DNA of 64,000 nucleotides. It comes from a virus. Lineage: Duplodnaviria; Heunggongvirae; Uroviricota; Caudoviricetes. Below are positions 9,669 to 11,218 of this stretch, piece by piece. Numbering within the stretch: position 1 is the first letter of the stretch; every line of letters begins with the position of its first letter. A program made the translations under genes and the position numbers. The notes beneath the pieces were generated by a model. The model saw nothing but the letters and a program-made list of their open reading frames with translations. It was not told where the DNA came from and did not search any database. The stretch is from the IMG/VR virus record IMGVR_UViG_2778261505_000002. One strand, written 5' to 3'.

Positions 9669-10059
9669 AAACATATTGATAAGTATTTACTTACTTATCT
9701 TTTATGTATAAGATGACTTTGTTTTCGTTGAGACGCGACTGTTTGAACTTAAATACAAGTGCAAACGAAGAAGTCTATCTGGCAGTAGCCTAATAAGCCA
9801 AACACCAGCGAGGTCAGTTTCCAGCCTCGTTACCGAAATGGGACACACTGAGCGAGTGTGATTGCAGAACGCAGGAGGGAACATTCATGTTCCCTCCGAT
9901 GAAGTAACAGAATGGGCGGTTGGTATATTTTCAACTCCATATGACTCCCGGATTCTTAGCCACTGACCGCCCATCCTGTTACGTCATTTTGTTCAATTAT
10001 GTCGTTTATACTGGGTTAAAAAGCGGCGACGTAGCCCGGCTGGTATGGTTAGCCAGCAC

Positions 10060-10179
10060 ACAACGTTGAGGCCATTACATTTTTATCAATTCTAAGGTTC
10101 TATTCACAGAGATACCGGCGAGCGTTGATATGTAACATGTTGGGCAAACATTCAATCGGAGTAGTGGCCTCAACGTTGT
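10060..10179. other. Long imperfect hairpin (19-bp stem, ~82-nt loop) upstream of tRNA cluster
   Basis: ACAACGTTGAGGCCATTAC ... GTAGTGGCCTCAACGTTGT, 18/19 complementary, read directly. Confidence 0.4.
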
Positions 10180-10446
10180 GAAGACAGGATTGTTGTGTAG
10201 GTTTAACCACTGTTGCCATTGGTGCCTGTTTTCACAACAAATGATTCCATACATCACATTGTATAAATTACAAAGTAGGTGCTGTCCTCAGAAACATCAT
10301 CTACTTAAAGATTTTGCCTTCTACTATTGAGCGAAGTCGAAAGCGTCTGGCACTAACGAAAAGTGCAAGTAGCGGTGCGTTTCCTGGCAGAAACTAAACC
10401 GTCGCGATTGGCACTGTTGAGTAATAAATACTGGCAGTGCTGAATT

Positions 10447-10521
10447 GATGGTGTAGCTCAGCGGTAGAGCAGTTGGCTGTTAACCAACTGGTCGGTGGTT
10501 CGAATCCACCCACCATCGCCA
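10447..10521 (+). tRNA. tRNA-Asn (anticodon GTT)
   Basis: Cloverleaf read by eye: acceptor GATGGTG/CACCATC, anticodon stem GTTGG/CCAAC with loop CTGTTAA, T-arm GGTGG-TTCGAAT-CCACC, encoded CCA; differs from host-type tRNA-Asn. Confidence 0.85.
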
Positions 10522-10526
10522 ATTTA

Positions 10527-10613
10527 GGGGAGTTAGTCCGTAGAGGTAGCGGTGTAGACTGTAAATCTACTGTCATTGCGACTCGGGTGGTTCGACTCCA
10601 TCACTCCCCACCA
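10527..10613 (+). tRNA. tRNA-Tyr (anticodon GTA), class II
   Basis: Acceptor GGGGAGT/ACTCCCC, anticodon stem GTAGA/TCTAC loop CTGTAAA, long variable arm, T-loop TTCGACT, encoded CCA. Confidence 0.8.
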
Positions 10614-10617
10614 AATT

Positions 10618-10693
10618 GCCGGTTTAGCTCAGTTGGTAGAGCGCCTGCCTTGTAAGCAGGATGTCAGCGGTTCGAGTCCGTTAACCGGCACCA
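10618..10693 (+). tRNA. tRNA-Thr (anticodon TGT)
   Basis: Acceptor GCCGGTT/AACCGGC, D-arm GCTC-AGTTGGTA-GAGC, anticodon stem CCTGC/GCAGG loop CTTGTAA, T-loop TTCGAGT, encoded CCA. Confidence 0.85.
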
Positions 10694-10910
10694 ACACAAC
10701 AGGAAAGAGCATTGAAAACCGCCGAGACTGCCCTGTTTTAAGCGTAAGTCCGTGCAAACGTCATACAGTGCTCTTTTCGTTGTGGTTGATGCGCAGACTG
10801 ATGCGCGGAAAGAAATGCCCCAGCGACACACGAGGCGAGTTCACACACTGCAATGCAGTCAGTAGCCGGGGTCGCTAAGCCGGAGATCAGTACCGGTAAC
10901 CACAACAATT

Positions 10911-10997
10911 GGAGAGTAGGGAGCATGGTGCTCAAGCGGTCTTGAAAACCGTCCCATTGTGCAAGCGATGATGGTTCGATTCCATTACTCTCCGCCA
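10911..10997 (+). tRNA. tRNA-Ser (anticodon TGA), class II
   Basis: Acceptor GGAGAGT/ACTCTCC, anticodon loop CTTGAAA, long variable arm, T-loop TTCGATT, encoded CCA. Confidence 0.8.
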
Positions 10998-10999
10998 GA

Positions 11000-11077
11000 C
11001 ACAGCGTTGAGCGGTTTGGCCTTTTAATCACCCAGATTAAGACTCCGCTAACATAAACCAGACCGCTCAACGCTGTG
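11000..11077. other. Long hairpin (20-bp stem, 38-nt loop) immediately after tRNA-Ser
   Basis: CACAGCGTTGAGCGGTTTGG ... CCAGACCGCTCAACGCTGTG, 19/20 complementary (mismatch is a G-U pair in RNA); shares CGTTGAG core with the hairpin at 10060..10179. Confidence 0.45.
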
Positions 11078-11111
11078 ATAGACAATTACGGCAGACGTTC
11101 TTAACCATAGC

Positions 11112-11139
11112 TTGCTAACATCCTAGCAACACTTTTTTT
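11112..11139 (+). terminator. Rho-independent terminator
   Basis: TTGCTA-ACATCC-TAGCAA stem-loop followed by TTTTTTT. Confidence 0.5.
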
Positions 11140-11152
11140 CAGCGCAAAATTC

Positions 11153-11176
11153 AAAGGGGCTTCGGCCCCTTTTTTG
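11153..11176 (+). terminator. Rho-independent terminator
   Basis: AAAGGGGC-TTCG-GCCCCTTTTTT, GC-rich stem plus T-tract, downstream of tRNA cluster. Confidence 0.65.
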
Positions 11177-11218
11177 CAACTGAAAGAGTCAAGTCTACGA
11201 ACTTTGTAGGAAGAAATA

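Follow-up and report, generated by a model that had tools for sequence, protein, structure and literature searches.

A tmRNA-derived tag RNA complementary to host tmRNA in the hairpin and tRNA island of an SSU5-like phage-plasmid

What is encoded in a 1.5-kb region of phage DNA that is rich in tRNA genes and long hairpins and poor in open reading frames (ORFs)? The question is raised by a 64,000-nucleotide stretch of Caudoviricetes DNA (IMG/VR record IMGVR_UViG_2778261505_000002; hereafter the window), which originates from an SSU5-like phage-plasmid of Escherichia coli. A preliminary description, made from the sequence alone, had presented positions 9700-11180 as an ORF-poor RNA island in which four tRNAs are embedded among long-stem hairpins sharing a CGTTGAG core. 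This observation is partly confirmed and was largely right: the RNA-level reading holds, while the shared core does not extend to all hairpins. The region is indeed ORF-poor, and none of the program-made ORFs within the island has a Pfam match. The island is present at 100% identity across its length in plasmid CP056788 and at ~98% in phages Cyrano and CMS-2020a, and most of it recurs at 73-83% in Salmonella phage SSU5, in Klebsiella, Enterobacter and Citrobacter phage-plasmids and in Yersinia pestis pMT1. We give about even weight to the view that positions 9686-11175 form a single co-oriented RNA operon without protein genes, composed of (i) a transfer-messenger RNA (tmRNA)-derived tag RNA, (ii) hairpin modules and (iii) four tRNAs. 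The first of these, which occupies the first 155 nt of the interval (9720-9874) and had been overlooked, is its most informative element, and represents a new, widespread and unannotated family of tmRNA-derived RNAs with an antisense handle on the tmRNA of the host.

The tag RNA (9720-9874; like all features below on the + strand unless marked otherwise) consists of a messenger-like domain followed by two pseudoknots, without a tRNA-like domain. Its reading frame (9761-9796; GCA AAC GAA GAA GTC TAT CTG GCA GTA GCC TAA TAA) encodes the peptide ANEEVYLAVA followed by two stops, to be compared with the E. coli tmRNA tag ANDENYALAA, and, as expected of a tmRNA, opens at a GCA resume codon with neither start codon nor Shine-Dalgarno sequence and closes with hydrophobic residues and alanine before the stops. 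The adenosine at position -4 of the frame (9757) corresponds to A86 of tmRNA; it is invariant in the 44 family sequences used for the covariance model described below, and the uridine at -5 is conserved in at least 90% of them, matching the frame-setting pair U85/A86 of tmRNA. The window has C at -5, a base tolerated at this position in E. coli tmRNA (PMC2481249). The frame runs into a P5-like helix (9780-9800; UGGC/GCCA) which holds the stop codons in its loop and is paired in 82% of family cells. It is followed by pseudoknot PKa (9809-9843), whose stem 1 (CGAGG/CCUCG) and stem 2 (UUCCA/UGGGA) are 94.5 and 97.2% paired, with double-sided changes at all four pairs of stem 2, and by pseudoknot PKb (9844-9872), whose stem 1 (CACAC/GUGUG) is 95.5% paired. 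PKb stem 2 is paired in 81% of cells across the family, is weak in the lineage of the window (GCG/CGC) and is degenerate in SSU5-like members. The helices of P5, PKa and PKb all show covariation, with 90.7% of cells paired, compared with at most 48% when the partners are slid; double changes occur in 133 cells vs. 38.6 in shuffled alignments, a value reached by none of 500 shuffles. The element thus shows the stop-in-loop helix and downstream pseudoknots of a tmRNA, with two pseudoknots instead of three. PKa stem 1 (CGAGG/CCUCG, 9809-9829) has the same sequence as stem 1 of pseudoknot PK1 in the host molecule (E. coli tmRNA nt 49-66), and in the cofold of the element of phage HK620 the PKa region pairs also with host PK1.

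Members of this family were found in SSU5-like phage-plasmids, HK620-like lambdoid phages, Felix-O1-like phages and others, including virulent groups. Distant BLAST searches matched ~110 nt around the tag frame in unrelated phages, always in unannotated sequence: inside the tRNA clusters of Felix-O1-like phages, between pR' and the late terminator of HK620 and HK633, and beside tRNA-Ser in Klebsiella phage Carvaje. The alignment of these loci shows an invariant GUUUUCGU, an A-rich leader and tags such as ANEDTYLAVA, ANDNQYLAVA, ANEEMYLAVA and ANDNVFLAVA, with differences that include synonymous ones. Scanning IMG/VR with a pattern in which both GUUUUCGU and GCAAACGA were required yielded at least 120 loci, and a 10-residue tag is encoded in 92 loci (83 unique) among the IMG/VR matches listed and the reference loci. 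The 31 distinct ORFs always have 10 codons followed by TAA, TAG or TGA, and always end in alanine, for which three codons are used; entropies by codon position are 0.84, 0.61 and 1.22, the third position being the most variable. The fixed length, the alanine end, the varied stop codons and the third-position variability indicate that the frame is under coding constraint. The covariance model R1, built from 44 family members with the window element among them, scores that element at 112.6 bits (E 7e-25) as the sole copy in the window, gives at most 21 bits on pattern-only decoys and does not match E. coli ssrA. The family occurs in 350 of 5426 complete E. coli genomes, where it is left unannotated by the PGAP pipeline, and, being unannotated, is invisible to current genome and transcriptome analyses. 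A pattern scan of genome contigs gave chance matches only (tag ORF in none of at least 120 loci listed) and therefore allows no statement on host range. The literature searched contains no description of this group of tag RNAs, nor of any natural RNA directed against tmRNA. In the Y. pestis plasmid pMT1 (L131; NC_004838, 1343-1860), the tag (ANEDTYLAVA) and the hairpins up to module M2 (see below) are kept, and the island ends abruptly beside caf1R of the F1 capsule locus, with no tRNA after it.

Upstream of the tag frame lies an antisense domain (9721-9744), of which 9721-9730 is complementary to nt 95-104 of E. coli tmRNA and 9735-9744 to nt 82-91, a span that holds U85, A86, the -1 triplet and G90 C91. 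The two window helices flank a 4x3 internal loop and amount to ~20 bp with nt 82-104. At the level of motifs, GUUUUCGU is the perfect complement of nt 97-104 (host tag codons 3-5), GCGACU pairs with nt 86-91, from A86 through the -1 triplet to the second base of the resume codon, and UUUGCGG, found in HK620-like members, is complementary to the 3' strand of PK1 (nt 75-81); the blocks are colinear with their targets. GCGAC is present in 25 of the 31 distinct 5' domains, while GUUUUCGU is invariant, including in seven phages found by BLAST. These seven alone are unbiased for GUUUUCGU and GCAAACGA, whereas GCGAC and UUUGCGG were never required by the search.

For 5' domains of the HK620 type, the predicted duplex energy with host tmRNA is much better than that of shuffles, at -40.7 for HK620 (shuffles -25.3+/-2.3) and -48.2 for locus L017 (shuffles -31.2+/-3.3). 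In a test of chained exact complements, the observed value was reached by 26 of 5000 shuffles for the window, by none of 5000 for HK620 and by 3 of 5000 for Felix-O1-like phage Moogle; the same test against the remainder of the tag element itself gave a match of 6 nt only. When cofolded with full-length ssrA, the window and HK620 elements keep the helices, the window with both of them and the second as 9735-9740 with nt 86-91; a longer second helix, reaching 9744 by way of a G9741-U85 wobble, was derived by hand. It is the host sequence that the blocks match, and not the tag region of the phage: phage codons 3-5 vary while GUUUUCGU does not. Neither within the element nor downstream of it do the invariant 5' blocks have a partner that covaries with them, and a search for a long-range helix between them and downstream sequence, comparable to P2 of tmRNA, gave nothing consistent. 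Invariance without a partner in cis, combined with the match to host tmRNA, is explained by a target in trans. An identity of GUUUUCGU as an analog of the tmRNA D-loop was dropped, as the motif is the perfect complement of host nt 97-104.

Transcription of the tag RNA would start from a promoter-like element at 9686-9714 (TTTACT, 17-nt spacer, TAAGAT), with a predicted start at or next to G9721. Its -10 box TAAGAT aligns with TAAGAT/TATGAT of the SSU5-like relatives and with TTGACA-17-TAAGAT/TATAGT of Felix-O1-like phages, at the same distance from GUUUUCGU; the TTGACA-17-TAAGAT form is a strong promoter. HK620 (L006, 1459-1836) has the tag RNA, together with two hairpin modules, in the interval from the late promoter pR'/qut to the late terminator; given this position, they would belong to a short constitutive leader transcript in lysogens. 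Expression of the island in lysogeny is hinted at by the transcriptome of an LF82 lysogen, in which a spurious coding sequence over tRNA-Thr and tRNA-Ser of Cyrano stands 15-fold above the prophage background (PMC9928086). The Y. pestis small-RNA tables list no small RNA at the pMT1 copy.

We propose, with a probability of roughly one half, that the tag RNA docks on host tmRNA, masks its tag template and probably supplies a template of its own. Transcribed from its own promoter (in HK620, as part of a constitutive late-leader transcript), the tag RNA would pair in the lysogen or infected cell with host tmRNA over U85/A86, the resume codon and codons 2-5, and the host template would be masked by this pairing. 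Synthetic oligonucleotides directed to the same region suppress, in vitro, the release from stalled ribosomes and the action of tmRNA (PMC3384345), and inhibition is therefore the least effect to be expected. The pairing being antiparallel, the phage leader and resume codon would leave the duplex beside host PK1, where the host template usually starts, and this geometry, combined with the coding constraint on the tag, favors substitution of the template. Alanyl-tmRNA-SmpB would then rescue stalled ribosomes and resume on the phage template, so that the released proteins would end in ...LAVA and not in ...ALAA. That the tag RNA, as a widespread class in enterobacterial phages and prophages, is in this way a detachable messenger module of tmRNA, which docks on alanyl-tmRNA-SmpB and substitutes a phage tag (...LAVA, ...MVAA or ...LMAA), is a tentative extension to which we give clearly less than even odds.

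Several points weigh against this reading of the island. The duplex of the window itself (-26.3) is just ~2 standard deviations better than its shuffles (-21.6+/-2.5), a modest margin caused by a U-rich RNA meeting an A-rich target. Since the collection scan selected for GUUUUCGU and GCAAACGA, the invariance seen among the IMG/VR loci is partly a matter of ascertainment. The minimum free energy cofold of Moogle lacks the antisense helix, and the lineages of L027 and L053 lack GCGAC. The tmRNA of Salmonella presumably has one mismatch to GUUUUCGU, yet the Salmonella elements keep the motif. The ribosome could unwind the duplex of tag RNA and tmRNA, and a hybrid with both sets of pseudoknots may not fit into the ribosome. 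A consensus promoter scan gave no site in the island at its threshold, and cleavage of the 20-bp stems described below by RNase III is a guess from stem length.

The complementarity could also be read in another way, with the tag RNA acting as no more than a natural antisense RNA that inhibits or titrates host tmRNA or SmpB as a sponge and switches off tagging or trans-translation, its own frame being left untranslated. Such a role would suit pairing that spans A86 and the resume codon, as well as the lack of a tRNA-like domain, and is the very effect that synthetic antisense oligonucleotides have in vitro (PMC3384345). A pure antisense RNA, however, needs none of the frame features: the fixed length of 10 codons, the three types of stop, the highly variable third positions, the C-terminal alanine, the invariant A(-4), and the conserved stop-in-loop helix and two pseudoknots. 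We therefore regard pure inhibition as unlikely, and retain docking with a probable supply of template.

Several known systems resemble parts of this proposal. The anti-ssrA oligonucleotides used in ribosome display and cell-free systems (PMC3384345) are likewise complementary to the part of E. coli tmRNA that codes for the tag, and by pairing there they block its action on stalled ribosomes; the phage RNA differs in being natural, in having an internal loop in its pairing and in being fused to a replacement tag template. The fragment of mycobacteriophage DS6A (Hudson et al., 2014; PMC4131195) is also a partial tmRNA of a phage, thought to interfere with host trans-translation, but it keeps the tRNA-like domain only, while the tag RNA is the reciprocal messenger half with an antisense segment added.

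The prophage-encoded anti-sRNAs AgvB and AsxR of enterohaemorrhagic E. coli pair with a non-coding RNA of the host and redirect host regulation. In the present case the target would be tmRNA, and the tag RNA bears a translatable template in addition. Trans-translation operates in all bacteria, where it has an effect on how several phages grow and serves as a target for antibiotics. If the extended proposal is true, the fate of every protein rescued from stalled ribosomes would be reprogrammed by a tag chosen by the phage, and the tag RNA would represent the first natural case of trans-translation being hijacked in trans, and the first of a tmRNA function divided between a virus and its host; the mechanism, if confirmed, would be categorically new. 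A prophage RNA that blocks or rewrites trans-translation would give mobile elements a new control of host protein quality control, perhaps with effects on the stability of toxin-antitoxin or defense proteins as well. The carriers are common and include E. coli genomes, Y. pestis pMT1, phage-plasmids of Klebsiella and Salmonella and Felix-O1-like phages of the type used in therapy; the tag RNA may moreover serve as a natural scaffold for engineering tmRNA tags in trans.

How is the tag RNA related to the known classes of tmRNA? It shares with one-piece tmRNA (SsrA, RF00023) the GCA resume codon, a 10-residue AN(D/E)...A tag, the A at -4, stops within a helix loop and H-type pseudoknots after the tag. 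It differs in having no acceptor stem, T-arm, CCA, G3:U70 or PK1, in having two and not three post-tag pseudoknots and a 5' antisense segment, and in its size (155 nt vs. 363). It also falls below every Rfam tmRNA threshold and, except in Moogle, is missed by ARAGORN. Its likeness to E. coli ssrA extends over no more than ~40 nt in the tag region. With regard to PK1, only 31-42 nt precede the tag, and RNAalifold gave no covarying helix there. The tag RNA thus lacks the tRNA-like domain that defines a tmRNA, and in the window ARAGORN, Rfam and a scan for T-arm plus CCA were all negative for such a domain. ARAGORN and Rfam (at gathering threshold and at E<=10), applied to the window and 12-16 related loci, gave no tmRNA call except a doubtful permuted one in Moogle, and the best sub-threshold scores of tmRNA families in the window were 14.8 and 14.4 bits, compared with thresholds of 47 and 84. 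SmpB was sought in the window by tblastn without a match, which is weak evidence. An exhaustive survey had found no tmRNA in enterobacterial phages (PMC4131195), while a later ARAGORN census reported phage tmRNAs in 2.3% of genomes, the two-piece forms being mostly marine (PMC9004378).

The tag RNA might, alternatively, be the coding piece of a true two-piece (permuted) tmRNA, with an acceptor piece located elsewhere in the phage or too divergent to be recognized, in which case the complementarity to the host would be incidental. Two-piece tmRNAs (of alpha- and beta-proteobacteria, cyanobacteria and marine phages such as Melnitz; RF01849-51 and RF04321; PMC9004378) likewise have a separate messenger RNA that needs a base-paired tRNA-like partner, and the leader and tag of the tag RNA are near the RF04321 consensus. 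In fact, the best sub-threshold Rfam scores belong to permuted models; RF04321, with a threshold of 47 bits, gives 14.8 for the window and 30.7 for L012. The permuted tmRNA noted earlier in phage Moogle (PMC4319497) is an ARAGORN call that uses this very tag. That call joins the tag to a permuted tRNA-like element lying 500 nt upstream in Felix-O1-like phages, and in some of them a tRNA-like element with G3:U70 follows just downstream of the tag RNA. In Moogle, however, three tRNA genes and a promoter lie between the two supposed pieces, of which the acceptor element lacks G3:U70. The pieces of known two-piece tmRNAs, in contrast, share one precursor and pair through acceptor and P2 helices. 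No orphan T-arm plus CCA, and hence no acceptor piece of this kind, is present in the window (64 kb of a ~110-kb genome). Many loci are without any tRNA-like element, the 5' blocks have no covarying partner, and the sole evident partner of the tag RNA is the complete tmRNA of the host, contacted via the tag region. A two-piece identity is accordingly improbable.

The permuted tRNA-like element of Felix-O1-like phages, ARAGORN's "acceptor piece," comprises a T-arm, a closed "acceptor" hairpin and a D-arm (Moogle, L010, ~2480-2560; L008, ~915-990; wV8, L009, ~990-1050) and resembles the architecture of Y RNA (YrlA) or of a permuted tRNA. Its acceptor arms are wholly different and yet complementary when Moogle and Michonne are compared with wV8. 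In some Felixounaviruses (wV8, 1699-1785; also loci L056, L061 and L091), a tRNA-like gene replaces the canonical tRNA-Arg(UCU) 3' of the tag RNA. This gene, which receives no ARAGORN call, has no D-arm, keeps a UCU anticodon arm that covaries, and carries G3:U70, A73 and an encoded CCA, i.e., the alanine identity set.

An origin of the tag element as a decaying fragment of host ssrA left by imprecise excision is scarcely credible, for although many phages integrate at ssrA and ssrA fragments are reported in prophages (PMC9004378), the similarity is confined to the short tag region noted above, R1 has no ssrA match, covariation and coding constraint extend across unrelated phage groups including virulent ones, and in several lineages the element has its own promoter-like -10 box.

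The remainder of the island comprises seven long-stem hairpin modules and two small hairpins, together with the tRNAs. Hairpin H0 (9874-9897), directly 3' of the tag RNA, is a perfect 11-bp stem (z -5.7, z-scores being taken against 200 dinucleotide shuffles) and represents the AGG-AAG-GCA module in its minimal form; in SSU5, pJN2-26 and other relatives its arms are swapped for different but still complementary sequences. Module M1 (9899-9987; z -5.1) has ~24 bp with GUAACAG/CUGUUAC feet and a variable loop. The small hairpins Hb (9997-10034) and Hc (10039-10057) are nearly invariant. Module M2 (10059-10180; z -6.5) is closed by a 20-bp stem with feet CACAACGUUGAG/CUCAACGUUGUG around 82 nt of variable cargo, and module M3 (10175-10238), with a 14-bp stem GUUGUG...CACAAC, shares its GUUGUG with the 3' arm of M2. 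Module M4 (10695-10784; CACAAC-AGGAAAGAGCAUUG ... CAGUGCUCUUUUC-GUUGUG; z -4.5) begins 2 nt past tRNA-Thr and is homologous to the module 3' of the tag RNA in HK620 and Carvaje. Module M4b (10779-10906), which ends 4 nt upstream of tRNA-Ser, has an outer helix GUUGUGGUU/AACCACAAC, replaced in HK620 by GUGGUG/CACCAC, and conserved inner hairpins GCGCAGACUGAUGCGC and GCCGGAGAUCAGUACCGGU; a strict regular expression for it matched at three loci only. Module M5 (11000-11077; z -10.4) is a 20-bp stem beginning 3 nt past tRNA-Ser.

The four hairpins proposed originally fold 5 to 10 standard deviations better than their shuffles, none of the 200 being as good, and are upheld, with 9906-9980 corresponding to the inner part of 9899-9987; those at 10175-10238, 10695-10784, 10779-10906, 9997-10034 and 10039-10057 were added here. 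The stems of M2 and M5 are among just five inverted repeats of at least 16 nt in a scan of the 64 kb, and each has one mismatch that is a G-U pair on the + strand only, as had been supposed for the single G-U pair of 11000-11077. The feet alternate and are shared between neighbors, once as CACAAC(10059)...GUUGUG(10175)...CACAAC(10233) and again as CACAAC(10695)...GUUGUG(10779)...CACAAC(10901).

An alignment (A3) of 15 SSU5-like phage-plasmid sequences, covering stems M1, Hb, Hc, M2 and M3, showed that the stems are maintained as RNA structure. In total, 96.9% of cells are paired, compared with at most 52% when the 3' partners are slid, and both sides are changed at 8 pairs (24 cells), a covariation matched by none of 500 shuffles. 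The helices of M1 (helix 1), Hb and Hc are paired in 100% of cases, with one G-C to A-U swap in Hc, and that of M2 (helix 4) in 96.6%, with both sides changed at 4 pairs. In Klebsiella relatives, GUCACGG/CCGUGGC replaces AAGACAGG/CCUGUUUU in M3, and in one SSU5-like relative GCUGAACGG/CCGUUCAGC stands for GUUGAGCGG/CCGCUCAAC in M5, which thus covaries as well. Stem mismatches are G-U in 115 cases and A-C in 7, placing the structure on the + (tRNA) strand and excluding a strand-neutral DNA palindrome. The proposed RNA-level structure, and the covariation in relatives by which it was to be checked, are thereby borne out.

Beyond the close relatives, the modules trail the tag RNA as a modular family in many unrelated phages and occur also without tRNAs. 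The M4 type (CACAAC-AGGUAAGAGCAUUG ... CAGUGCUCUUUCC-GUUGUG) recurs in HK620, Carvaje and many IMG/VR phages, with 20 distinct complementary arm pairs in 21 loci and a median closing stem of 18 bp. The cargo between the arms varies in sequence and length and in other phages is sometimes tRNA-like, with a T-arm. The modules are probably processing or insulating elements: they would be stem-closed units that insulate the folding of neighboring RNAs and mark processing sites at tRNA ends. Module ends lie 1-5 nt from tRNA ends, a placement that agrees with processing signals or co-processed RNAs of a phage tRNA cluster. Phage tRNA islands would then be built from exchangeable stem-closed RNA units, which bears on how such islands are annotated and engineered.

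The possibility had been raised that the hairpins are small stable RNAs, and they might act as independent regulators, perhaps as decoys or anti-defense RNAs. Compatible with this are stems that stay conserved while the cargo varies, the tRNA-like cargos with T-arms in some other phages, the two sequence-conserved inner loops of M4b and the near invariance of Hb and Hc. On the other hand, cargo sequence and length are poorly conserved even in close relatives, modules are freely gained and lost (M4 and M4b are missing from Cyrano) and they adjoin tRNA ends, so we consider independent RNAs somewhat unlikely and prefer processing or insulating elements. Species 1 and 2, the small stable RNAs encoded among the tRNAs of T4, to which the hairpins had been likened, are similar in being RNAs other than tRNAs that are transcribed and processed together with a phage tRNA cluster. 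They are probably not the closest relatives; the modules form a family of their own with CACAAC/GUUGUG feet.

RNase III processing stems, as found in rRNA precursors and T7 early RNA, are ~20-bp uninterrupted duplexes bracketing a cargo in a polycistronic RNA. M2 and M5 are of this substrate size (20 uninterrupted pairs, ~two turns of double-stranded RNA) and their cleavage is putative; the other modules have 10-14 pairs or are bulged, and the shared feet have no known link with RNase III. An Rfam search of the island gave no match to small RNA families, and a likeness to bacterial Y RNA (YrlA) was rejected, since no module of the window has a T-arm or an Rfam hit.

That the inverted repeats act as DNA, i.e., as mobile elements like miniature inverted-repeat transposable elements (MITEs), as attC-like cassette recombination sites or as an origin, is very improbable. 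Their shared ends on terminal inverted repeats, the differing presence of modules and tRNAs in close relatives and the ~55-nt direct repeats flanking the tag element of L053 would suit mobility. The mismatches are nevertheless strand-specific and the stems covary, the rest of the 64 kb has no further copy, target-site duplications were not observed, and every module is co-oriented with the tRNAs and the tag RNA; MITE, DNA palindrome and attC-like identities were rejected on account of the G-U bias and the confinement of all copies to the island. In L053 (~3060-3400) the tag RNA lies between the two repeats (hairpin plus TATGGTATGTTTA) just upstream of the ribosome-binding site of a gene, as though inserted as a cassette.

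Regarding the CGTTGAG core, the claim stands for 10059-10180 and 11000-11077, where the motif occurs in both arms, and fails for 9874-9897 and 9899-9987. A further copy lies at a non-hairpin site (9726-9732), and 5 of the 10 copies in the window are in the island, the window-wide count being at chance level. Specific to the M2 and M5 hairpins is a longer foot, CACARCGTTGAG, with four exact copies and one with a single mismatch vs. 0.68 expected.

All four predicted tRNAs were recovered by ARAGORN: tRNA-Asn(GUU) at 10447-10521, tRNA-Tyr(GUA) at 10527-10613, tRNA-Thr(UGU) at 10618-10693 and tRNA-Ser(UGA) at 10911-10997. The first three are also found by Rfam, the class II tRNA-Ser falling just under the gathering score. 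None of the four acceptor stems, as read from the sequence, carries G3:U70. Close relatives differ by gain and loss of modules and tRNAs: Cyrano is without tRNA-Tyr and without 10700-10898, and one CMS-2020a strain has an insertion. Co-oriented tRNAs lie near the tag RNA in 51 of 86 unique loci (among the loci listed). A counterpart of the Asn-(Tyr)-Thr-Ser block (10447-11000), at 78-93% identity, is present in phages N4, P7, D6 and vB_EcoM-Ro157c2YLVW; the remainder of the island is not shared by these phages.

At its 3' end the island has two terminator-like hairpins recognized by folding, one at 11112-11139 followed by a U run and one at 11153-11175 (GGGGC-UUCG-GCCCC-UUUUUU); neither was listed by a terminator scan tool. 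Directly upstream of the island is a small ORF (9378-9668), labelled "C-type natriuretic protein" in many plasmids; this label on its homologues looks like an annotation artefact, there being no Pfam hit. A 15-mer, AATGATTCCATACAT (10240-10254), is invariant in relatives and heads no conserved ORF in the aligned SSU5-like ones. It is probably a protein-binding site, present in five copies in the window (one with a mismatch) vs. 0.27 expected, at 9228-9242, 10240-10254, 11891-11905, 11909-11923 (- strand) and 17940-17954 (- strand), with one pair in palindromic arrangement.

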